A stretch of 64,000 nt of DNA, taken from NCBI GenBank assembly GCA_005881175.1, contig VBEN01000025.1:21548-85547 (forward strand), read 5' to 3'. The DNA comes from Chloroflexota bacterium (GTDB lineage Bacteria; Chloroflexota; Dormibacteria; CF-121). Shown here in pieces: positions 29,865-40,488 of the stretch (the stretch's first letter is position 1; the number at the start of each line of letters is the position of its first letter). The translations under genes were made by a program, and so were the position numbers. The notes below the pieces were generated by a model that did no database searches, was not told the DNA's origin, and saw only the letters and a list, made by a program, of their open reading frames with translations.

Positions 29865-31801
29865 CCGACTTTCCCAATCACGCGGCCAGCGAGCATCATG
29901 GTGACCGTCGCCAGCACAACCATGCCCGCCAGCAGGCCGATGACCAGCTGGCGCGGACGAACATCCGGCAGCCAGCGCCGCGGCTGGCCGGCGAATGCCA
30001 CGCTATCGGCGACCAGGTCGACAGTCGCGTCGACGCGCTGCTCGATCCAGCCGGCGGCGCGGCTCGCCGGCATCAGCAGCCCGGCGGCGCCGAAGTGGTA
30101 GGCCCGTTCGACAAACAGTCCCTCTGCCATCGCCCGTCGAACCGGTTCCAGGGCGACGACCGGACGCGGGCGGGCGTAGATGACCCAGGCGATGCCCGCG
30201 CCCAGCACGGCGGCAGCGGCGATGATGCCGGCCGCCACGAAGTGCGAATTCGACACGGTCACGCCCGGGAAGGTGACAAAGGCGATCGGGTCGGTACGCC
30301 CGCGGATGCCGCGGATCCCCGCGGCGGTGCACGGGATTGCCAGGATGACCATCGCGGTCGCGATTCGGCCACCCGCATCGCGGATGCGTTCCGGTTCGAA
30401 GCGGCGCCGGCGCGCCGTCTCCCCGGTGAACGCCAGTCTGAAGATGCGGACCAGGGCCATCGCGCCGAGGAAGGTCACCGCCGTGATCAGGATGATGGCA
30501 ATCGGGCTGCGCAGCGCCAGCGCTTTGGACAGCATGGCGTCTTTGCTCCAGAAGGTGCTGAACGGCGGAATCCCCGCCCCGGCTGCCACCGCGATGAGCA
30601 TCACCCAGCCGGTGAGTGGCATTCGTCGCCAGAGGCCTCCCATTTCCGCCAGCCGCTCGGTGCGCAGCTCGCGGATGATGACCCCGGCGGCGAGAAAGAG
30701 CAGCGCCTTGGGCCAGGCGTGGGCGAAGACCTCGAAGATGCTGGCGCCGTAGGCGCCGATGCCGAGCGCGAGCACCATCAGGCCGAGCTCGCTCATGGTG
30801 GTGTAGGCGATCGCGCGCTTGAGGTTCTCCTGGAAAAGCGCCCAGAGGACGCCGAGCACGGCGGTCAAACCGCCTGCGATGGCCAGCAAGGCCAGCGCCC
30901 GGGGGCTGGCGTGAAACAGGGCGTACGCGCGGGCCAGCAGGTAGACGCCGCACAGCGCGGCGCCGGCCGAGTGCAGCAGCGCGGCAGCCGGCGCCGGCGC
31001 CTGGGCGCTTCCCGGGAGCCAGGCATGCAGCGGGAACTGCGCCGACTTGGCGGCCGCGCCCAGAAAGACCAGGATTGACATGATGAAGAGGCCGTTGGCA
31101 CTGACCTTGCCGCCCGTGTACTGGGTCGCCAGCGTCTGAAAGTTGAGCTCGCCGAATCGGAAAAAGATGTACGCGATTCCGGCCAGCAGGGCGAGATCGC
31201 CCGCCAGCGAGAGGACGAACGCCCTCGCGGCCGCCGCCGCGGCTTCTTCACGCTGCCACCAGTAGCCGACCATCAAGTAGGTCGACAGCGTCACCAACCC
31301 GAAGAAGAGCAGCATCTCGAAGTAGCTCGTCGAAAGCGTCACCCCGGTCATCGCAAAAGTGGCGAAGAGAAGCACGCTGAAAAATCGGACCGGGCCGTCC
31401 TCCCGACGGATGAAGGCGAGGGCGTAGACCTGCACCAGCAGGCTGGTCAGCGTCACCGCGATCAACATCACGGCCGCCAGTGGGTCCGCCAGTACGCCCC
31501 ACTGGAGAAGGAATTCGGAGGCCGATCCGGTCTGTCCGGTCAAAAGCTGGAGGAAGGTCGCGTTGCGCTCCAGGTGAATCGGGTGCGCGATCTCGATGGC
31601 GACCACCAGCAGGGCGCAGACCACCGCCGCCAGCGTGAAGATGACCGAGATCGCCGCGCTCAACCGGCGCGAGTCGACGGTGAAGGCGAGGATGATGAGC
31701 AGCGCGATCAGGGGCAAAAGCAGCGCGAAGAGCGCGAGCAAGGTCGGGCTCCAGGTGTCGAGCGGACCCTTGGGCGCGGCGGCGAGCAGAGTCAGGATCA
31801 C
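29861..31801 (-). CDS. nuoL: NADH-quinone oxidoreductase subunit L
   Basis: ND5/NuoL-like protein of 646 aa with the long C-terminal extension typical of subunit L. Confidence 0.85.
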   Translation of the reverse strand: MILTLLAAAPKGPLDTWSPTLLALFALLLPLIALLIILAFTVDSRRLSAAISVIFTLAAVVCALLVVAIEIAHPIHLERNATFLQLLTGQTGSASEFLLQWGVLADPLAAVMLIAVTLTSLLVQVYALAFIRREDGPVRFFSVLLFATFAMTGVTLSTSYFEMLLFFGLVTLSTYLMVGYWWQREEAAAAAARAFVLSLAGDLALLAGIAYIFFRFGELNFQTLATQYTGGKVSANGLFIMSILVFLGAAAKSAQFPLHAWLPGSAQAPAPAAALLHSAGAALCGVYLLARAYALFHASPRALALLAIAGGLTAVLGVLWALFQENLKRAIAYTTMSELGLMVLALGIGAYGASIFEVFAHAWPKALLFLAAGVIIRELRTERLAEMGGLWRRMPLTGWVMLIAVAAGAGIPPFSTFWSKDAMLSKALALRSPIAIILITAVTFLGAMALVRIFRLAFTGETARRRRFEPERIRDAGGRIATAMVILAIPCTAAGIRGIRGRTDPIAFVTFPGVTVSNSHFVAAGIIAAAAVLGAGIAWVIYARPRPVVALEPVRRAMAEGLFVERAYHFGAAGLLMPASRAAGWIEQRVDATVDLVADSVAFAGQPRRWLPDVRPRQLVIGLLAGMVVLATVTMMLAGRVIGKVG

Positions 31802-31813
31802 GGGCCGGTCGAC

Positions 31814-32122
31814 CTACCCACGATCCGCATCGATGCCGAGGCTATGACCCTCGCGATACAGCAGGACCGCCATGGCGAGCCCAATGGCCAGTTCGGCCAC
31901 AGCGATCGCGCCCGCAAAAAGCGCCACCGCCTGGCCGCCTGCCGCGTGGGATGCGCCAAGTCCGAAGCGGGCGAACGCCACAAACGCGATGCCCCCGGCC
32001 ATGAACATGAATTGCGTGCCGAGCAGCGCGACGAACGCATTGCGCCGGGCAACAAGCGCGAAGGCGCCGACCGCGAGCAGCGCGGCCGACCCCACCAGGA
32101 AGAGATTCAGGCCAGCGCTCAA
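31814..32122 (-). CDS. nuoK: NADH-quinone oxidoreductase subunit K
   Basis: TTG 32122 overlaps the nuoJ TGA (TTGA). 'MSAGLNLFLVGSAALLAVGAFALVARRNAFVALLG...AELAIGLAMAVLLYRE' is NuoK-like, about 102 aa. The longer ORF to 32407 lies inside nuoJ. Confidence 0.8.
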   Translation of the reverse strand: MSAGLNLFLVGSAALLAVGAFALVARRNAFVALLGTQFMFMAGGIAFVAFARFGLGASHAAGGQAVALFAGAIAVAELAIGLAMAVLLYREGHSLGIDADRG

Positions 32123-32631
32123 CGGCGCGTGCCGCGAGAACCGCCACGGCCCCGTTCCGGCAAGGCTGGCGCGCCGCGAGGGCTCCGGCCAGTGAGCCGG
32201 GGCCCCGCGAGCAGCAGCCCGCTGCCCAGCGCGGCGGAGGCGAGCATAACGATGAGCGTCGCAAGTCCGACGATATAGGTGCTGGTCAACGTTCCGGCAA
32301 AGTCTTCCGGCACCGCGCAACAGACACGCACCGGCCAGGCGGTTGCACCGAGCACAACCGCGAGAAGCGCGAACAGGGCCGCTGACACCGCCGCGCCGAT
32401 GATCCATTCGCGGCCGAACGGCCCCACGGCCGACGCCGCGAGGCCCGTGGTTTCTCGCAGCAGAGCTATCAGGAGCGCGGCGCTCACGGTCGTGAAAACC
32501 AGAAGCTGGAGAGCAAAGAGCAGGAACGGAGCGATCGTCAGGTAGAGCAGCGCGACCAGCACCATGCTGCCGGCGAAGGCACCGATGGCGTAGAGGGTGT
32601 TGCGCATGAGCACGCCGCCGATCAACAGCAC
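32119..32631 (-). CDS. nuoJ: NADH-quinone oxidoreductase subunit J, N-terminally short
   Basis: 'VLLIGGVLMRNTLYAIGAFAGSMVLVALLYL...LQLLVFTTVSAALLIALL' is NuoJ-like. Only about 9 residues precede the conserved 'RN', against about 20 in homologues I recall. The upstream in-frame codons are hydrophilic and run into a stop. Confidence 0.75.
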   Translation of the reverse strand: MLLIGGVLMRNTLYAIGAFAGSMVLVALLYLTIAPFLLFALQLLVFTTVSAALLIALLRETTGLAASAVGPFGREWIIGAAVSAALFALLAVVLGATAWPVRVCCAVPEDFAGTLTSTYIVGLATLIVMLASAALGSGLLLAGPRLTGRSPRGAPALPERGRGGSRGTRR

Positions 32632-32661
32632 GGGGTCAGATTCTATCTTGCGAGGCGGGAA

Positions 32662-33450
32662 TCAGTATTCGACCTCGCCTTCACCGGGCGGCCAGTAGGT
32701 CTCCTCTTTGATCGAGGTCTGCTCGAAGCCACCTCGACGTAGAATCCCGCGCGCATTCACGATCATGCCGGCGTTGCCGCACAGGTAGGCAGTCGTCGTC
32801 TCGGCAGTCAACTCGAGCTTGTCGGCGTACTTTCGGATGAGATCGTCCACCCTCCCCCGCTCACCCTTCCATTCCGGATCCTCCCACGGCCGGCTGATGG
32901 TTTGAATGTAGGTGAGCCAGGGATATTCGTCGGCCAGCGCCAGCAGCTCGCGATCGTAACCGAACTCGTCCGAACGCGACACGCCCTGCAGCACGGTAAA
33001 CCGAAACGGCTCGGCCAGGCGGCCTTCCTTGAGGTCCTGCACCAGGGTGCGGACCATGCTGACGTAGGGCGCGATGCCGGTGACGGTCGAGATCAGGAAG
33101 TGCTGCTGGTGCCCGGATTTGACGTCGACGTTGAAGATCCCTTTGGCTTTCTTGCGCATGAACACGCAGTCGCCAATTTTCAGCTCATACAGCTGCGGCG
33201 AGAGGGCGCCTTCGGGCACGCGCTCGATGAAGAACTCAAGTTCGGGCTCGTAGGGGCTGGACACGATCGAGAACGCCCGCTCCAGGACCTTGTCGTGGTT
33301 GTCGACCCCGAAGGCAACGTACTGCCCCGCCTTGAAGGCCAGCGGCTCCGGGGGCTTCATCCAGACCGACCAGAGTGTCGGCGAGTAATCCTCCCGCCGG
33401 GTGATCGGGACCACCATGTACTTTTCAGCGTGATCGACAGCCACGGCCAC
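32662..33450 (-). CDS. Ferredoxin-NADP(+) reductase-type flavoenzyme (FNR/Fpr family)
   Basis: FAD site 'RAFSIVSSP', NADP site 'ISTVTGIAPY', 'YLCGNAGMI' and a C-terminal aromatic residue '...EVEY'. Confidence 0.85.
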   Translation of the reverse strand: MAVAVDHAEKYMVVPITRREDYSPTLWSVWMKPPEPLAFKAGQYVAFGVDNHDKVLERAFSIVSSPYEPELEFFIERVPEGALSPQLYELKIGDCVFMRKKAKGIFNVDVKSGHQQHFLISTVTGIAPYVSMVRTLVQDLKEGRLAEPFRFTVLQGVSRSDEFGYDRELLALADEYPWLTYIQTISRPWEDPEWKGERGRVDDLIRKYADKLELTAETTTAYLCGNAGMIVNARGILRRGGFEQTSIKEETYWPPGEGEVEY

Positions 33451-33454
33451 TATC

Positions 33455-33757
33455 CTATTCGCCGCTGGTTTGACTCAACGCCGGGCCGAAGATCAAGTCC
33501 AGCGCCACGCCGAAGACGGCGAGGACGACCCCAGCGGTCAGGAACGTGAAGGTGGCGCCTCCAGACAGGTAACCGCGACCCCACAAGGCGCCCAGCAGGA
33601 AGCAGAACGCGCCCAGGACCACCAACCAGTACGCCGTCCGACCGCGCCACGCCAGCTGGGCGGCGAGCACAGCACCCAGGCAGGTCAGGTACACCAGAGC
33701 GATAAGCGCGAAGGTCGGCAGCAGCGGATGCTGGGCGGCGGCGTCAAGCAGGCTCAC
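33455..33757 (-). CDS. Small membrane protein (3 predicted TM helices), unknown function
   Basis: GTG 33757 overlaps the mnmA stop. The 100-aa protein has three hydrophobic segments. There are 4 nt to the FNR-like gene. Confidence 0.55.
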
Positions 33758-34839
33758 CCGTCGGCGGCGATCGGGCCACCGCCGATCACCCGGTCGCCGT
33801 CGTAGAAGACCGCGGCCTGGCCGGGGGCGAGCGCCCGCTGCGGAACGTCGAAGTCGATGCGGGCCTGGTCACCCAGGGGCGTTATCAGGGCCGCGGCCTC
33901 GGGCGCGTGCGAGCGAATCTTCACTGTCGCGTTGAACGGTGCTCCGGGCGCGCGCCCTGCGACATACCGAACATCCTCCACCCGGCAAGTGCTCCGCAAC
34001 AACTGCTCGGGATCGCCCACCCGAATCGTGTTGCTCAGCGGATCGATCGCGCTGACGTAGCGAGGCGGGGACGCCGGTCCGTTGGACTGCAGCCGGAGTC
34101 CCGATCGCTGACCAACCGTGTACATCGCGATCCCGTCGTGCTCTCCGACGACGGCACCGCCCTCATCGACGATGGCCCCCGGACGTACGCGGTCGCGGAA
34201 GCGCTCTTTCAACAACGTTCGATAGCTACCGTCGGCTACGAAACAGATCTCCTGGCTTTCCGGCTTCAATGCCGTCTTCAGCTCGAGCGCCGCTGCTTTC
34301 TCGCGCACCTGGGACTTCGACCAGTCCCCGATCGGAAAGCGAAGCACGTGAAGCTCATCCTGGCCAAGCTGATAGAGGACGTACGACTGGTCCTTGCGCT
34401 GGTCGACGGCCTTGAGCAGCCTGTAGTCGTTCTCACCGCGCTCGATACGGGCGTAGTGGCCGGTCGCCAGCGCCTGCGCGCCCAGAGCCAACGCCTTGCG
34501 CAGCAGCAGTCCGAACTTGATCGTCTCGTTGCACCGAATGCACGGATTCGGCGTGCGCCCCTGCAGATAGGCTTCCGTGAACGGATCGATGACCGCCGTT
34601 CGGAAATCGTCTTCGAAGTTCAAGACGTAGTAGGGAATGCCGAGCTTGCTGGCGACCCGCCGCGCATCCTCGACCGCGTCCAGCGAGCAGCAGCCATGGT
34701 GCTTATCGAAGTCGCGGGCGGCCATCTCCTTCGGCCAGAGCTGCAGCGTCACTCCGAAGACGTCGTGACCGTGTTCGCGCATCATCGCGGCGGCGACCGA
34801 CGAGTCGACGCCGCCGCTCATGGCGACGGCGACTTTCAC
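33754..34839 (-). CDS. mnmA: tRNA 2-thiouridine(34) synthase MnmA
   Basis: GTG 34839 overlaps the NIL-gene TGA (GTGA). PP-loop '[10 protein letters not shown]', '[12 protein letters not shown]' and 'SQEICFV'. The ORF extension to 34938 overlaps the upstream gene. Confidence 0.9.
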
Positions 34840-35099
34840 GCTGGCTCCAGCCGTTGGACCCCGATTCCCCGGCTGCGGCAATACTCCAGGGCCCGATCGA
34901 CCTCCGCCTGTTCGCCGTCGAGGTCGAGCTCGACCCACCCGCTGTCTTCGGCCACATCGGCCCGTCTGATGTTGGTCACGACCTTGTACTCCTGGCCAAG
35001 CCGGTAGATGATGGGGTCATTGAGGGTGTCGCCGCGGAATGTCAGGCGCACCGTCGTCCGCGCCACCAGGGCGTTAGCCTCCGGCGACTGCCGGGACAA
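34836..35099 (-). CDS. NIL-domain protein (ferredoxin-like fold, MetN C-terminal type)
   Basis: '[65 protein letters not shown]' matches the NIL-domain pattern. ATG 35099 overlaps the moaD-like gene by 26 nt. GTG 35066 is an alternative start. Confidence 0.7.
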
Positions 35100-35349
35100 T
35101 GGATAGATCGTCGCTGTCCTTCAGCGGCGTCTTGAGCCCCGACCCGAACCGAATGTCCTCATCGTTCCGGTAGATGTTGATGAATTGCCGGAGCTCGCCC
35201 TTGTCGTCATAGAGCCGCTCCCGAAAACCCGGGTATTTCTCGTTCAGCTCGTCGAGCGCCTGCGAGACGTCGTCGGCATCGACCTCGACGATGGCCGCGC
35301 CGCGGGTGAGCTGGCGCAGCGCCCCGGGCACCCGAATTTTGACCGCCAT
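35074..35349 (-). CDS. MoaD/ThiS-family ubiquitin-like sulfur-carrier protein (C-terminal GG)
   Basis: 'MAVKIRVPGALRQLTRG...[31 protein letters not shown]' has a beta-grasp pattern and ends in Gly-Gly. ATG 35349 is chosen over the ORF start at 35400. Confidence 0.8.
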   Translation of the reverse strand: MAVKIRVPGALRQLTRGAAIVEVDADDVSQALDELNEKYPGFRERLYDDKGELRQFINIYRNDEDIRFGSGLKTPLKDSDDLSIVPAVAGG

Positions 35350-35358
35350 GTGGTGGTC

Positions 35359-35364
35359 ATTATA
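35359..35364 (-). promoter_or_regulatory. Perfect TATAAT -10 hexamer 9 nt upstream of the moaD-like ATG (leaderless or near-leaderless transcript)
   Basis: The reverse complement of 35359-35364 is TATAAT. The ATG is at 35349 and there is no Shine-Dalgarno sequence in between. Confidence 0.4.
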
Positions 35365-35372
35365 AGTAGGTA

Positions 35373-35397
35373 AGGCGGCGGGGTCTGCCCGCCGCCT
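35373..35397 (-). terminator. GC-rich hairpin (about 10-bp stem, 5-nt loop) after the APC permease gene
   Basis: AGGCGGCGGG-cagac-CCCGCCGCCT on the minus strand, 16 nt after the stop at 35413. It is followed by the T-rich 'TTACCTACTTATAAT', which is only a weak U-tract. Confidence 0.4.
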
Positions 35398-35412
35398 CAC
35401 GATCGCTCGACG

Positions 35413-36987
35413 TTACGCTGCGCGGGCTACCCGATCCGTCTTGCCTCGCTGCGCCACCAGGTAGTAGATGGCGCCGACGACGAGAATCACGGCAATCGTC
35501 GCCTCGAAGATGGGAACATTGCTGAGGGGACCGAGGTTCGGGATGTTCGGCAGCGCGCTCACTGGCGGATTGCTCGCCGCCCTGGGCCACATGAAGTTGA
35601 GGAGCATACTGCCGCCCCACACCAGTGCCAGGACGTTGACCACCATCCCCCAGCCGCCTAGCTTGAACGGCGCACCCTCGGTGGGCCAGCCTTTGCGGCG
35701 GGCGATCAGGATCGCGATGTTTCCCAGCAGGTAGGAGAAGTAGATCATCCCGGTGGCGGAGATTGCCACCAGCCCGGCGCCGGCGAAGTACAGGAATGGC
35801 ACGGCTGATAGCGCGCCCACGACCACGCAGGTCCAGACCGGCGTGTGCAGGGTGGGGTTGACCTTGTTGTAGAGGCGGGACAGGGGGAGCTTTTCATCCC
35901 GAGCCATGCCGAAGGCCAACCGGATGGTCGAGGTCTGGATTGCCAGGCAGCAGACGTAGATGGCCAGGAGCACGATCAGCAGGTAGAGATCTGACGCCCA
36001 GCTCGGCAAATTGGCGGTGATGATGTCGACCGGCGGCGCCACCTTCGCGGCTGCGGTATCAGCGACGTACTTGTGCACGTCACCGGGGATGGCGATGATC
36101 GTCGAGTAGAGGAAGATCGCCCCGATGATGAATGCGCCGATGACGGCGGCGATCACCGCTCTGGGTGCTTCCCGCCTCGGGTTTTTGGTCTCTTCCGCCA
36201 GCGTACTGGCGGTGTCGAACCCATAGATGACGAAAAGGGACATGAACATGGCGAGCATGAAGGTGCCGAACTGGTTGCCGAAGCCCGTTCCAAGCGCCGA
36301 GGTGTCGAAGACGACCCCCGCCGACTGGTGGTGGAAGAAGACCAGAAGCACCAGAGCGAACACGACCATGCCCAGGATCTCGAAGACAACCCCGGTGTTG
36401 TTGACCAGGGCGACCAGGCGGACGCCGTAGATGTTCAGGACCGTCGTGCTGATCAGGATCAGGGCGGCGATGATGACGTACGCCTGCGGCCCACCAGGCT
36501 CGCTGGCTAATGGAATGTGAAGCCCGAACAGGTTGTTCAGCAACGGTATCAAGACGATGGGGATCGTGAGGTCGACGGCTGAGACCGTCAGGATCCCGGC
36601 GAACAGGTAGACCCAGCCGGTGAACCATGAGTAGGTCCGATTGGACAGATACTTCGTCCACTGATAGACCGAGCCCGCAACCGGGAAGTGTGAACTCACC
36701 TCAGCGAAATTGAGGGCCACGATCAACTGACCGAGGGCAACGATGGGCCAGGTCCAGAAGAAGAACGCCCCACCGGTCGCGAGACCGAGTGCGTACAGCG
36801 TGAAGATGCCGGTGCTCGGCGAAATGTACGAGAAGGCGACGGCGAAGCTCGAGTAAATACCGAGGACCCGTTTCAGTTCCTGCTTGTAGCCGAAGCCGGC
36901 CAGGTCGCGGGCGTCGGCGGCCTCCTGGCCAATGGGTATGGGCTCGACGGGCGATTGCGATGGGCGCGTCAGGACGTCGTCGGGCAT
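35413..36987 (-). CDS. APC-superfamily amino acid permease
   Basis: 524 aa, about 12 TM segments. The N-terminal 'GYKQELKRVLGIYSSFAVAFSYISPSTGIF' is typical of amino acid/polyamine permeases. Confidence 0.85.
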   Translation of the reverse strand: MPDDVLTRPSQSPVEPIPIGQEAADARDLAGFGYKQELKRVLGIYSSFAVAFSYISPSTGIFTLYALGLATGGAFFFWTWPIVALGQLIVALNFAEVSSHFPVAGSVYQWTKYLSNRTYSWFTGWVYLFAGILTVSAVDLTIPIVLIPLLNNLFGLHIPLASEPGGPQAYVIIAALILISTTVLNIYGVRLVALVNNTGVVFEILGMVVFALVLLVFFHHQSAGVVFDTSALGTGFGNQFGTFMLAMFMSLFVIYGFDTASTLAEETKNPRREAPRAVIAAVIGAFIIGAIFLYSTIIAIPGDVHKYVADTAAAKVAPPVDIITANLPSWASDLYLLIVLLAIYVCCLAIQTSTIRLAFGMARDEKLPLSRLYNKVNPTLHTPVWTCVVVGALSAVPFLYFAGAGLVAISATGMIYFSYLLGNIAILIARRKGWPTEGAPFKLGGWGMVVNVLALVWGGSMLLNFMWPRAASNPPVSALPNIPNLGPLSNVPIFEATIAVILVVGAIYYLVAQRGKTDRVARAA

Positions 36988-37110
36988 ATGAGGGTTCCCT
37001 CCTCTCCCTTAGGTTCCGGCCAAACGTAGCAGAGCATCGGGGGTTCGTCAATCAGCTGTTTGGCCGCTCAACGGCCCGATTCTCCGGGCCCCGCCGCTAT
37101 ACTCCGGCGG

Positions 37111-38715
37111 GTGCCGGCCGAATACGACGCGATCATCGTCGGGGGCGGGCACAACGGGCTCGCGACGGCCGCCTATTTGGGGAGGGCAGGACTCAAAACC
37201 CTGGTACTCGAACGGCGAGGCGTCCTGGGCGGGGCCGCCGTCAGTGAGCGTCCCTGGCCCGGCTACACGGTCTCGACCCTGTCGTATGTCCTCTCGCTGA
37301 TGCCTCCCGAAGTGATTCGAGAGCTGGAGCTGCATCGACATGGATTGACGCTGTATCCGCTTGCCGCCGACTACTACGTACCGTTCCCCGACGGATCTCA
37401 CCTGCTGCTGACCAAGGACGCGGCTCAGGCGAAAGCGGAGATCGGCAAATTTTCGAAGGCGGATGCCCAAGCCTGGCCAGTGTTCAGCGAGTACCTGGCG
37501 AAGCTCGCCCGCCTCGTCCGGCCATTGCTCTTGATGACCCCGCCGGCCGTCGGCGCGAAATCGCCGGCGGACCTGCTGGAACTGGCCCGCTTCGCCTGGA
37601 AGCTCAAGGGGCTCGACGTCAAGAGCACGGGAGACTTCGTGAAAGTCATGACGCTGTCCGTCGCCGAGCTGCTCGATGAATGGTTCGAGTCACCGCAGGT
37701 CAAGGCGGCGCGCTGCGTCTCCGGCGCGATCGGGACCTACGGGGGACCCCACACGCCGGGCACGGCCTACGTCCTGCTGCATCACTACATCGGTGAGGTC
37801 GGCGGGCAGATGGCGGAGTGGGCCTTCGTCCGCGGAGGCACCGGCGCCGTCTCAATGGCGATCGCGGATGATGCCCGGGAGCACGGTGCCGAGATTCAGA
37901 CCGGGGCGCGAGTGGCACGCATCCTCGTCGAGAATGGCCGATCGCTTGGCGTCGCGCTCGTCGACGGCACCGAGCTCCGGGCGCGCGCCGTGGTGTCGAA
38001 TGCCCACCCGAAGATCACATTTTGCGAGCTTGTGGAATCGAGCCAGCTGCCGGCCGATTTCGTACGCGCGATCGACCGATATAAGTCGCGCTCCGGCACG
38101 GTCAAGGTCAACCTGGCGCTGGGGGAACTGCCTAGATTTGACGGCCTCGAGCCGGAGGATTCGATGACCGCGGCCCGCTCGTTCATCCAGCTCTGCGACT
38201 CGATGGAGTACCTGGAACGCGCCTTCGACGACGCGAAATATGGTCGGCCCTCAACCGCGCCGTACTCCGACGGCGTGATTCCGACCGTCGTTGACGACTC
38301 GCTTGCTCCCAGCGGAAAGCACCTGATGAGCTGCTTCACGCAGTACGTCCCTGCCAGCTGGTCACAGGCGCCGCATCGCGCCGAGCTCGAAGCGTTCGCC
38401 GATCGCGTGATCGACGGTTACGGGCGCTTCGCGCCCAACCTCAAGATGGCCGTCGAGCACCGCCAGGTTCTCGGGCCCTACGACATGGAGCAGGAGTACG
38501 GGCTGGTGGGCGGCAACATCATGCACGGCGATCTCACGCTCGACCAGTTGTTCTCATGGCGGCCGGTGGCCGGCTACGCCGATTACCGCACGCCCATCAA
38601 AGGGCTCTACCTCTGCGGGTCGGGTACTCATCCCGGCGGCGGCATTAGCGGCATCAACGGTCGTAACGCCTCCAAGGAGATCCTCAAGGACCTGAAGGGG
38701 CTAGCTCGGCGCTGA
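37111..38715 (+). CDS. NAD(P)/FAD-dependent oxidoreductase, phytoene-desaturase (CrtI)-like family
   Basis: Rossmann 'YDAIIVGGGHNGLATAAYLGRAGLKTLVLERR'. The C-terminal 'GLYLCGSGTHPGGGISG' is typical of COG1233 enzymes. GTG 37111 is preferred over TTG 37060. Confidence 0.8.
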   Translation: MPAEYDAIIVGGGHNGLATAAYLGRAGLKTLVLERRGVLGGAAVSERPWPGYTVSTLSYVLSLMPPEVIRELELHRHGLTLYPLAADYYVPFPDGSHLLLTKDAAQAKAEIGKFSKADAQAWPVFSEYLAKLARLVRPLLLMTPPAVGAKSPADLLELARFAWKLKGLDVKSTGDFVKVMTLSVAELLDEWFESPQVKAARCVSGAIGTYGGPHTPGTAYVLLHHYIGEVGGQMAEWAFVRGGTGAVSMAIADDAREHGAEIQTGARVARILVENGRSLGVALVDGTELRARAVVSNAHPKITFCELVESSQLPADFVRAIDRYKSRSGTVKVNLALGELPRFDGLEPEDSMTAARSFIQLCDSMEYLERAFDDAKYGRPSTAPYSDGVIPTVVDDSLAPSGKHLMSCFTQYVPASWSQAPHRAELEAFADRVIDGYGRFAPNLKMAVEHRQVLGPYDMEQEYGLVGGNIMHGDLTLDQLFSWRPVAGYADYRTPIKGLYLCGSGTHPGGGISGINGRNASKEILKDLKGLARR

Positions 38716-38738
38716 AGGCCCAGCGCGCGGGCCCTGGC

Positions 38739-39506
38739 CTAGAGCACGCTCGAGAGAAACGTCCGGGTACGCTCGTGCTGCGGATTCGTCAACACTGCTT
38801 TGGGCTTCCCCTCTTCCACCACGACTCCGCCATCCATGAAAACCAGGCTGTCGCCAACCTCCCGGGCGAAACCCATCTCATGCGTAACCACCACCATCGT
38901 CATGCCGTCCTCAGCTAACCCGCGCATGACATCCAGCACTTCGCCAACCAGCTCCGGATCGAGCGCCGACGTGGGCTCGTCGAAGAGCATCAGCTTGGGC
39001 TGCATGGCCAGCGCGCGGGCGATCGCCACTCGTTGCTGCTGGCCGCCGGAAAGCTGATTTGGATAGGCATTGACCTTTTCCGCTAATCCGACCCGCTCGA
39101 GGAGGCGTCGTCCCTGATCGACGGCGACGGCCCGGCTCTCTCTTTTGACTCGCAGGGGAGCCTCGATGACGTTCTCGAGGGCCGTCATATGGGGAAACAG
39201 ATTGAAGCGCTGAAAGACCATACCGATCTCAGAGCGTTTTCGACACACCTCCGCGTCGCGGAGCTCGTACAACTTGTCGCCCTGCTGACGATAGCCGACC
39301 AGCTCGCCGTCGACCGATAAGCGGCCGGCATCGATCTTCTCCAGGTGATTGATGCAGCGCAGGAAGGTGCTCTTGCCCGAGCCGGAGGGCCCGATCATGC
39401 ACATCACTTCCCTTGGGGCAACCTCGAGGTCGATGCCGCGTAGGACCTCGAGCCGCCCGAAGTTCTTGTGAACGGCTTCCGCCTTCACCATTGGGGTGCC
39501 GGCCAT
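38739..39506 (-). CDS. Polar amino-acid ABC transporter ATP-binding protein (GlnQ-like)
   Basis: 'GPSGSGKST', '[15 protein letters not shown]' and '[13 protein letters not shown]'. ATG 39506 lies just after the permease stop. Confidence 0.9.
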
Positions 39507-39507
39507 T

Positions 39508-40488
39508 TCAGCGATGCTCGCTAGGAAGCACCACCGGGGCCTCCTGGGTAGCCGGCGGCGGAGCATGGAACGTTACGAGCATCCGGCGGAAGCGCTGAAA
39601 CGGCGTCATTGGCAATCCACGCTGAGTGCCCCGACCGAAACGCCGCTCCAGGTAATACTGGCCCACCGTCAGGATCGAGGTCATCACCAGGTACCAGATG
39701 CTGGCGACAATAAGCAGCTCCAGGACAGCATATGTGGCGGTGGCGATTTGCTGCTGCCGAGTGAAGAGCTCAGTGACCGAGGCGGCGAAGGCCAGCGAAC
39801 TTGTCTTCAGCATTGAGATCGTCTCATTCCCAGTCGGCGGGATGATAACCCGCATTGCCTGGGGCAGCACGATGCGCTGCATAACCAGCAGGCGGTCCAT
39901 GCCGAGGGCCTGGGCCGCCTCGGTCTGGCCGTGCTCGACGGAGATGATCCCGGCCCGCACGATCTCGGCCATATACGCCGCTTCGTTCAAGCCCAGCCCG
40001 AGTGTCGCTGCCATGAACGGCGTGATCAGTGTGTTGGTGCTCACCTGCCACCAGATCGAGGTGAACGGAATCCCGATGCCGATGTGTGGAAGGATCAGGT
40101 TGAGGTTGAACCAGAAGAAGATCTGCACCAGCACTGGCGTGCCCCGGAAGAACCACACATAGAACCAGCTGACCGAGGAAACCACCGGGTTGGGTGAGAT
40201 CCGCATCACCGCCAGGATGACGCCCAGGATGATGCCGATCACCATCGCCAGGACGGTCAGCTCCAGCGTGACGACGATGCCTTGCAAGATCAGCCGATGA
40301 AACACGTAGTGGCCCACCGCGGCCCAGCCGGAGCCGAACGACGTGAGGTCGCTCTGGATCGCTGCGGCGATCGTATAAACGATGGCGGCGGCGACCGCGA
40401 GCACGACAACCGCCGCCACCCAGCGTCCCGGGTGCCTGACCGGGACGGCCTTGATCGCCTCGGGCCGCTGCGCTACTGCATCAGCCAC
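39508..40488 (-). CDS. Polar amino-acid ABC transporter permease (His/Glu/Gln/Arg/opine family)
   Basis: '[13 protein letters not shown]' and '[26 protein letters not shown]' (EAA loop). Confidence 0.9.

Follow-up and report, generated by a model that had tools for sequence, protein, structure and literature searches.

A CysO/MetO-type sulfur carrier with a putative NIL-domain partner, encoded together with mnmA in Dormibacteria

Among the closest described systems to the locus presented here is the MetM/MetO/MoeZ/Mec route of Streptomyces albulus, a published thiocarboxylate pathway from O-phosphohomoserine to homocysteine (Hasebe 2024, summarised in GapMind 2026, PMC13759103). The summary names as its parts a Gly-Gly carrier, a ThrC-like enzyme that is often misannotated as threonine synthase, a rhodanese-domain MoeZ-type E1 and a JAMM hydrolase (PMC13759103); a stand-alone NIL protein is not listed among the pathway components in two published summaries. 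In TtuB/TtuA (Thermus s2U54), Urm1/Ncs6 and SAMP2/NcsA, a thiocarboxylate carrier is paired with a PP-loop thiolase that has a three-Cys [4Fe–4S] site. A TtuA/Ncs6-like Fe–S site has also been proposed for the C-type class of MnmA (CC-CxxC-C) defined by Shigi 2020, with the observation that TtuA and Ncs6 use thiocarboxylated carriers (PMC7025502). The same study showed that the C-type MnmA of Thermus can receive sulfur from cysteine desulfurases in vitro, and raised the possibility of a still unidentified sulfur-carrier protein for the class (PMC7025502). NIL domains, for their part, occur as the C2 domain of MetN, which binds L-methionine for trans-inhibition and in which the N295A substitution abolishes L-Met binding (PMC6233128), and in NIL-ferredoxin, which partners COG1900 (L-aspartate-semialdehyde sulfurtransferase) in the methanogen homocysteine pathway (GapMind 2026, PMC13759103).

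The locus described here lies in a 64,000-nucleotide stretch of DNA (the window) and encodes a sulfur carrier, a NIL protein and MnmA. All four parts of the MetM/MetO/MoeZ/Mec route have counterparts in the source genome, but here NIL travels with the carrier, metM is unlinked, the carrier operon runs into mnmA and Rfam gave no SAM riboswitch in window positions 30000-40000 or in 14 related loci. CysO of the Mycobacterium tuberculosis CysO-CysM-Mec system is the closest solved relative of the carrier, and CysM-type and JAMM genes are present, although the carrier gene is not beside cysM and has NIL and mnmA as its neighbors. Relative to TtuB/TtuA, Urm1/Ncs6 and SAMP2/NcsA, the thiolase is of the MnmA family, the co-occurrence of carrier and thiolase is inconsistent and a transfer from one to the other is hypothetical. 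The NIL protein is predicted to have the fold of MetN C2 in the methionine ABC importer MetNI and keeps the equivalent of N295, but it is free-standing, whereas MetN C2 is fused to an ABC ATPase. The COG1900/NIL-ferredoxin system likewise ties a NIL domain to non-canonical homocysteine synthesis; our locus, however, lacks both a ferredoxin domain and a COG1900 enzyme, and the partner would be a ThrC-like enzyme with a thiocarboxylate carrier. Our best reading is a MetO/CysO carrier with a hitherto undescribed NIL partner, co-transcribed with mnmA.

The gene array and its signals

The features of the array, all on the minus strand, are as follows.

35374-35396, minus: 9-bp G+C hairpin GGCGGCGGG-cagac-CCCGCCGCC, 3' of the upstream APC permease gene
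35359-35364, minus: TATAAT hexamer, 9 nt 5' of the carrier ATG, read directly
35074-35349, minus: carrier gene, 91 aa, ending VPAVAGG
34836-35066, minus: NIL gene, 76 aa, GTG start
33754-34839, minus: mnmA, 361 aa, start overlapping the NIL stop (GTGA)
33455-33757, minus: gene for a predicted membrane protein of 100 aa, start overlapping the mnmA stop (GTGA)
32662-33450, minus: gene for a ferredoxin-NADP reductase (FNR)-like flavoprotein (Pfam NAD_binding_1 and FAD_binding_6)

Both the carrier/NIL and the NIL/mnmA junctions are spanned by metatranscriptome contigs. The GTGA overlap of NIL and mnmA (34836-34839), on which an earlier note on this DNA had remarked, is read directly from the sequence, but a second, identical overlap joins mnmA to the membrane protein gene (33754-33757) and the arrangement is thus not specific to NIL/MnmA. 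The membrane protein itself, for which no Pfam or NCBIfam match was found, is also kept downstream of mnmA in relatives; the flavoprotein gene, conserved downstream in Dormibacteria family f1, is next in the co-directional array and is followed by nuoJKLMN. As the junctions by which the array runs on into the downstream genes (membrane protein, FNR and nuo) are just as tight, adjacency here need not mean a common pathway.

The TATAAT to which the earlier note drew attention is present, and is possibly the −10 element of a transcript with a short leader or none. A consensus scan detected no full sigma-70 promoter, the hexamer having no −35 partner, and no T-tailed terminator upstream of the carrier gene. 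The hairpin that had been described as closing the previous gene does exist, but it has no T-run and was consequently not called a terminator by the scan. The promoter and terminator readings were dropped, and both elements stand as sequence features only. Riboswitch searches gave no Rfam match in window positions 30000-40000 at E values up to 0.1, and none at the Rfam gathering score in the 14 related loci.

The carrier, the NIL protein and MnmA

The three gene identities proposed in the earlier note (a ThiS/MoaD-type carrier, a NIL protein and MnmA) were borne out by Pfam and NCBIfam matches. The carrier matches Pfam ThiS (PF02597) across the whole protein (residues 5-91; 3e-15, 56.9 bits against a cut-off of 22.5), as expected of a ThiS/MoaD beta-grasp member, and its Gly-Gly, immediately before the stop codon, is kept in homologues. 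In NCBIfam it matches SAMP1 and MoaD-family models, with the SAMP1 equivalog scoring 67.2 against a cut-off of 60. The nearest solved structures over the full length are M. tuberculosis CysO (3dwg, 2.7e-18) and the ThiS/MoaD protein 4n6e, whereas MoaD-type structure entries match at 1e-7 or weaker. Of the three ThiS-family genes in the genome, it alone is free-standing; MoaD-MoaE and ThiS-ThiG fusions cover the MoaD and ThiS functions. By sequence, the carrier is classed as a CysO/MetO-type Gly-Gly carrier, closer to CysO than to MoaD/ThiS in a comparison made with solved structures. No fusion of carrier and NIL was seen among ∼130 loci.

The NIL protein, the only NIL match in the genome, is recognized by Pfam PF09383 (1e-14, 54.6 bits against a cut-off of 24), and its profile aligns over the full length with MetN C2 structures at 3.6e-6. 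Its AF2 model (pLDDT 89) superimposes on MetNI 3tui_C with a TM score of 0.88 and an rmsd of 1.1 Å, and the top 11 Foldseek matches of the model are all MetN C2/NIL structures (TM up to 0.88). N32, which aligns with E. coli MetN N295, is invariant in 45 sequences; a VTNIRRAD motif and an invariant GW distinguish the protein from MetN C2. Together, the alignment and the model point to methionine or a close analogue as its most likely ligand. Translation would begin at the GTG, 11 nt downstream of a GGAGG formed by the Gly-Gly codons of the carrier, to give 76 aa; an 87-aa form from a TTG start is unsupported by the homologue alignments.

All HMMs identify the thiolase as MnmA (NCBIfam equivalog NF001138, 1e-125, 419 bits against a cut-off of 284; three MnmA Pfam domains, from 1.8e-75); it lies outside the TtuA/Ncs6/NcsA family and matches PDB MnmA structures at 4.5e-73. 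Its PP-loop reads MSGGVDSS, with the SGGxDS signature, and its cysteine motifs HHGCCS, NPCIRCN and EICF make up the CC-CxxC-C pattern, which recurs in all Dormibacteria MnmAs examined. The suggestion in the earlier note that this MnmA belongs to an Fe–S subclass is thereby confirmed at the level of the C-type pattern, and the protein is probably a [4Fe–4S] enzyme. Neither in sister lineages nor at the Dormibacteria loci does a desulfurase gene lie within 1.5 kb of MnmA, which argues against a scenario in which the carrier pair displaced an iscS beside mnmA.

Partner genes and conservation of the neighborhood

As the earlier note had stated, the window contains neither an E1-like activator nor a desulfurase; the genome search that it proposed located both elsewhere. 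A rhodanese-MoeB E1 is encoded on another contig, several ThiF-type E1s are present, a CysM-type gene is followed by a JAMM peptidase gene on contig C158, and SufS and IscS-like cysteine desulfurases are encoded at further sites. A second cysO hidden at the broken end of C158 is unlikely, as each relative has one close carrier gene. The MetM-like gene (C61:5045-6289) sits beside asd, aspartate kinase and thrB. Its product is 55-56% identical to the carrier-adjacent enzymes of two other lineages, with which it has a CxxC...CxxC N-terminus in common, and belongs, within the ThrC family of PLP enzymes, to the type that travels with the carrier and not to the housekeeping ThrC. NCBIfam scores it as threonine synthase and does not separate MetM from ThrC, so that MetM is assigned from synteny in relatives and from the N-terminal zinc ribbon. 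Every relative has a second, shorter ThrC that is devoid of the zinc ribbon (42-46% identity). One ThrC paralogue of the source genome sits on a 1-kb contig.

Conservation of the neighborhood, which the earlier note had asked to be checked, extends well beyond the source genome. The order carrier-(NIL)-mnmA is found in 52 of the 52 carrier-bearing genomes among 61 Dormibacteria (on one contig in 50, split at contig ends in 2), spans four families and ∼20 genera, and is kept down to 46% MnmA identity. The carrier-mnmA adjacency is also kept after relocation of metM and where NIL has been lost. By comparison, metM adjoins the carrier in only ∼15 of the 52; metM-metO-NIL-mnmA is contiguous in families f3 and f4 and in one f2 genome. 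Three genomes that are 91-98% complete (G037, G043 and G049) are without MetM, carrier and NIL and keep a C-type MnmA. All three are small genomes and perhaps atypical.

Outside Dormibacteria, we sampled the best 80 NIL loci in GTDB species genomes, 56 of which fall outside the class. Among these 56, a zinc-ribbon ThrC-like (MetM-type) gene is present at 52 and the carrier is adjacent at 52, ThiF, CysK and JAMM occur at 14, 12 and 9, respectively, and MnmA occurs at none. Conversely, at 29 MnmA loci outside the class neither carrier nor NIL was found within 1.5 kb, and in complete Dehalococcoidia genomes the carrier/NIL and MnmA loci are 26 kb to ∼1.5 Mb apart. The lack of carrier-mnmA linkage in both sets of outside loci points to a single evolutionary origin of the linkage. 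Carrier and thiolase do not consistently co-occur across genomes, since MnmA is present without a carrier in the three genomes above and the two are unlinked in all sampled non-Dormibacteria. An acceptor enzyme, E1 or JAMM gene, as would be expected around a CysO/MetO carrier, neighbors the carrier in families f3 and f4 and at 52/56 of the outside loci (best 80 NIL loci), but not in the window. The earlier note, which had proposed a thiocarboxylate route to MnmA, had held that grouping of the carrier with moaE or cysO partners elsewhere would speak against it. This applies in part: carrier and NIL pairs of Dehalococcoidia and Nitrospirota, within the best 80 NIL loci, adjoin a MetM-type ThrC-like enzyme, ThiF, JAMM and CysK, and never MnmA.

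Destination of the sulfur and significance

We take the gene identities, the (predicted) NIL fold, the synteny and the phyletic patterns as established, and infer every chemical step in the following scheme. The carrier and NIL protein probably belong to a route in which a protein thiocarboxylate supplies the synthesis of sulfur amino acids, rather than being dedicated to MnmA, with mnmA linked to them by inherited synteny. The rhodanese-MoeB (MoeZ-like) E1 would adenylate and thiocarboxylate the Gly-Gly end of the carrier, and the zinc-ribbon ThrC-like enzyme (MetM type) would use the thiocarboxylate to convert O-phosphohomoserine to homocysteine. The CysM/JAMM pair for cysteine is probably served by the same thiocarboxylate, as with CysO, and the NIL protein would tune the pathway, most likely through binding of methionine or a close analogue. 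The ancestral Dormibacteria operon would have been metM-metO-NIL-mnmA-(small membrane protein)-nuo, which would explain why mnmA is co-transcribed with carrier and NIL; in the source genus, metM would have moved to the asd/aspartate kinase/thrB operon while the remaining genes stayed together. MnmA itself would most likely draw sulfur from the SufS or IscS-type desulfurases, as shown for Thermus MnmA, and thiocarboxylate transfer to MnmA, as suggested by gene order, is unlikely.

Some observations sit uneasily with a methionine-pathway role: the carrier-mnmA adjacency is kept more faithfully than that of metM and the carrier, it outlasts the departure of metM and the loss of NIL, the junctions are translationally coupled, and the site proposed for C-type MnmA resembles that of enzymes that use thiocarboxylated carriers. 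They would fit a dual use, in which the same CysO/MetO-type thiocarboxylate is also the source of sulfur at the free iron site of the C-type MnmA [4Fe–4S] cluster for s2U34, as in TtuB/TtuA or Urm1/Ncs6, and the conserved gene coupling reflects that use. The invariance of the gene order in every carrier-bearing Dormibacteria genome, the overlapping or closely spaced start and stop codons from carrier to NIL to mnmA, the metatranscriptome contigs across both junctions, the CC-CxxC-C signature and the carrier envisaged by Shigi 2020 (PMC7025502) are all consistent with dual use. Against it stand the absence of the linkage from the 56 NIL-anchored (of the best 80) and 29 MnmA-anchored loci outside the class, the C-type MnmA of the three carrier-less genomes, the desulfurases of the source genome and the equally tight joining of mnmA to the membrane protein and nuo genes, and we consider dual use unlikely. 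Its fuller form, in which the single carrier is also the in vivo donor for MnmA and NIL ties homocysteine synthesis and wobble-uridine thiolation alike to methionine status, is a slightly longer shot.

Other destinations were weighed in the same way. That the carrier serves cysteine only, as CysO does with CysM and a Mec-type JAMM in M. tuberculosis, with the ThrC-like paralogue an ordinary threonine synthase, would agree with CysO as best solved-structure match, the CysM-JAMM gene order on C158, the NCBIfam threonine synthase score and the single close carrier gene per relative. We nevertheless regard it as improbable: in other phyla carrier and NIL adjoin the ThrC-like gene at 52/56 loci and CysK at only 12/56 (best 80 NIL loci), the shorter, zinc-ribbon-less ThrC of each relative can be the true threonine synthase, and the carrier-adjacent enzyme type fits the published description of MetM, as summarised. 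A SAMP/Urm1-like protein modifier, with MnmA or NIL as conjugation target or cofactor, is very improbable, even with the SAMP1 equivalog above its cut-off and a genome that encodes a JAMM peptidase and several E1s of the ThiF type; nothing resembling an E2 or E3 was seen at the loci, the neighbors are metabolic enzymes in all lineages, and the carrier matches CysO much more strongly than SAMP1 structures.

If the methionine-pathway reading is true, the MetM/MetO homocysteine route would extend to Dormibacteria, which are uncultured and abundant in soil, and many annotations as 'threonine synthase', 'MoaD' or 'SAMP1' would probably be misnomers. The small NIL protein would then be a widespread companion of the MetM/MetO pathway that probably senses methionine. 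The coupling of carrier and mnmA throughout the lineage also provides a concrete test case for whether a protein carrier or desulfurase persulfide feeds C-type MnmA; a carrier-fed enzyme would, if real, be without precedent among bacterial MnmAs, with a wiring like that of Urm1/Ncs6 or TtuB/TtuA.

The carrier–NIL–mnmA array

The earlier note described a head-to-tail array of three minus-strand genes encoding a Gly-Gly sulfur carrier, a stand-alone NIL-domain protein and MnmA; the array is present in the window, and Pfam and NCBIfam bear out all three identities.

35074-35349, minus strand, carrier: 91 aa, C-terminus VPAVAGG; ThiS/MoaD (Pfam, NCBIfam)
34836-35066, minus strand, NIL protein: 76 aa from GTG; NIL (Pfam, NCBIfam)
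33754-34839, minus strand, MnmA: 361 aa; MnmA (Pfam, NCBIfam)

MnmA scores 419 bits against the NCBIfam equivalog cut-off of 284, and its cysteine motifs (HHGCCS, NPCIRCN and EICF) make up the CC-CxxC-C signature that marks the C-type, [4Fe-4S]-dependent class (Shigi et al. 2020, PMC7025502), in agreement with its earlier placement in an Fe-S-type subclass. For the NIL protein, previously given as 76-87 aa, homologues favour the 76-aa GTG start. A GGAGG Shine-Dalgarno-like sequence 11 nt 5' of this GTG coincides with the terminal Gly-Gly codons of the carrier (GGA GGC; 35074-35083), and the NIL and mnmA genes share a GTGA start/stop overlap (34836-34839), an arrangement repeated identically where mnmA ends and its downstream neighbour begins (33754-33757). 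This neighbour encodes a 100-aa membrane protein without a family match and is followed after 4 nt by an FNR-like gene and then nuoJKLMN; the same small protein comes after mnmA in f1, f2 and f4, at least three of the four sampled Dormibacteria families. The TATAAT and the hairpin (9 bp, GC) reported 5' of the carrier are in the sequence, but a consensus scan of the region turned up no complete sigma-70 promoter and no T-tailed terminator, nor was a riboswitch found at the locus.

Soil metatranscriptome contigs, from the study that also produced the window DNA, cover both internal junctions: carrier/NIL by contigs at 34969-35119 (no differences) and 35041-35326, and NIL/mnmA by contigs at 34792-34964 (no differences) and 34685-34964. 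This coverage fits co-transcription of the three genes, at low depth and with DNA carry-over possible.

Gene order within and beyond Dormibacteria

The lineage, named Candidatus Dormibacterota or, in the genome collection used, a class within Chloroflexota, was sampled through 61 relatives from four families and 22 genera, of which 46 encode NIL, 52 the carrier and 56 MnmA. The neighbourhood is conserved, as the earlier note had proposed to check: of the 52 genomes with a carrier, 50 have mnmA 0-4.1 kb downstream on the carrier's contig, and in the other two a contig break falls exactly between the genes. The interval holds NIL in 46 genomes; in five NIL is missing and the carrier directly abuts mnmA, and in one a membrane-protein gene takes its position. 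In families f3 and f4, as in a single f2 genome, a gene for a zinc-ribbon ThrC-like enzyme stands immediately 5' of the carrier gene (order metM-metO-NIL-mnmA); in the window's family it is always elsewhere. In f4 the array is followed by the membrane protein and nuoABCD, running straight into nuoA, B, C and D at L045:6711-10208, whereas the window array leads to the FNR-like gene and only nuoJKLMN.

Some f3 genomes have an MSMEG_0569-like flavoprotein inserted between NIL and mnmA (about 405-430 aa, family match below cut-off; L053:3666-4952, L043:3110-4375 and L054:2760-3974). At L053 the flavoprotein stop and the mnmA start overlap, and at L054 a plus-strand ORF additionally separates the flavoprotein from NIL. 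In the family-level relative G030, the neighbour of the carrier gene is a divergent ThrC-like frame interrupted by a TAG (C32:17226-18395); with 38% identity to the MetM-like protein, it could be a decayed copy.

Three f2 genomes (G037, G043 and G049; 91-98% complete, 1.5-2.0 Mb) have no match to the MetM-type enzyme, the carrier or NIL, and all keep an MnmA in which the C-type cysteine pattern is complete; in G037 its gene still precedes those for the membrane protein and nuoJKL. It is thus the ThrC-like enzyme, rather than MnmA, that the carrier follows. The association of mnmA with nuo genes equals that with the carrier in stability.

With each GTDB species represented by a single genome, a NIL-motif scan returned at least 595 relatives. 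Among the best 80 of these, 56 loci are from outside Dormibacteria (Dehalococcoidia/SAR202, Nitrospirota and one labelled archaeon); a ThrC-like gene occurs in 52 of the 56, an adjacent carrier likewise in 52, and MnmA in none. Dehalococcoidia arrange these genes as ThrC-like, NIL, carrier, and Nitrospirota as CysK, ThiF, ThrC-like, carrier, NIL, ThiF, JAMM. Conversely, at 29 MnmA loci sampled from Chloroflexota outside Dormibacteria and from Nitrospirota, no carrier, NIL or desulfurase gene was found within 1.5 kb, and on complete Dehalococcoidia chromosomes 26 kb to about 1.5 Mb separate the carrier/NIL and mnmA loci. Two Chloroflexota genomes from outside Dormibacteria have a co-directional CysK-type cysteine synthase gene as the immediate 5' neighbour of mnmA (L169:123-1016 and L173:486-1376).

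Candidate sulfur-transfer partners and the probable role of the carrier

The best solved relatives of the carrier, both matched over the full length, are Mycobacterium tuberculosis CysO (3dwg, 2.7e-18) and a ThiS/MoaD protein (4n6e). The ThrC-like enzyme, labelled threonine synthase by NCBIfam, matches the published summary of MetM, the homocysteine synthase that uses a thiocarboxylate in the MetM/MetO/MoeZ/Mec pathway and is there called "often misannotated" as threonine synthase (PMC13759103). The NIL profile can be aligned over its whole length to the MetN C2 domain (3.6e-6), placing its invariant N32 on MetN N295, whose replacement by alanine reduces L-methionine binding to undetectable (PMC6233128). 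Its AF2 model (pLDDT 89, pTM 0.76) superimposes on MetNI 3tui_C with a TM score of 0.88 and an rmsd of 1.1 Å, and the top eleven Foldseek matches are exclusively MetN C2/NIL structures.

The genome itself (a MAG, 89% complete, 2.9 Mb) contains a single NIL gene, that of the window. Its two other ThiS-family genes are fusions, MoaD-MoaE (C44:9849-10520, internal PPVSGG) and ThiS-ThiG (C59:34518-35498, internal VGGG), so the window carrier is its sole free Gly-Gly carrier. The E1 and cysteine desulfurase genes absent from the window occur elsewhere in the genome, along with a JAMM gene: a rhodanese-MoeB E1 (C156, above the NF006444 cut-off), a JAMM peptidase gene following a CysM-type gene at a contig end, and the desulfurases SufS (encoded in a suf operon) and an IscS/NifS-like enzyme. 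The zinc-ribbon ThrC-like gene is part of an operon that also holds asd, aspartate kinase and homoserine kinase genes. C232:6629-8702 additionally carries an Rrf2-family regulator and, after it, a tandem pair of overlapping ThiF/MoeB paralogues (271 and 265 aa).

The earlier suggestion that the thiocarboxylated carrier would feed sulfur to MnmA for s2U34 retains some support because, within Dormibacteria, the carrier-mnmA junction is better conserved than the metM-carrier junction; such a transfer is chemically plausible for an Fe-S MnmA, and an unidentified carrier for the C-type enzyme is explicitly allowed by Shigi et al. (PMC7025502). However, the linkage arose once, MnmA survives where the carrier is lost, and desulfurases are available in the genome, making this route unlikely.

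The MetM/MetO pathway and C-type MnmA are already known; a stand-alone NIL partner of the carrier and the Dormibacteria-wide joining of the carrier operon with mnmA are without description in the literature searched. We favour, with reasonable though not high confidence, a reading in which carrier and NIL would act in making homocysteine by a thiocarboxylate route, and probably cysteine as well via CysM and JAMM, with mnmA sharing their ancient operon.
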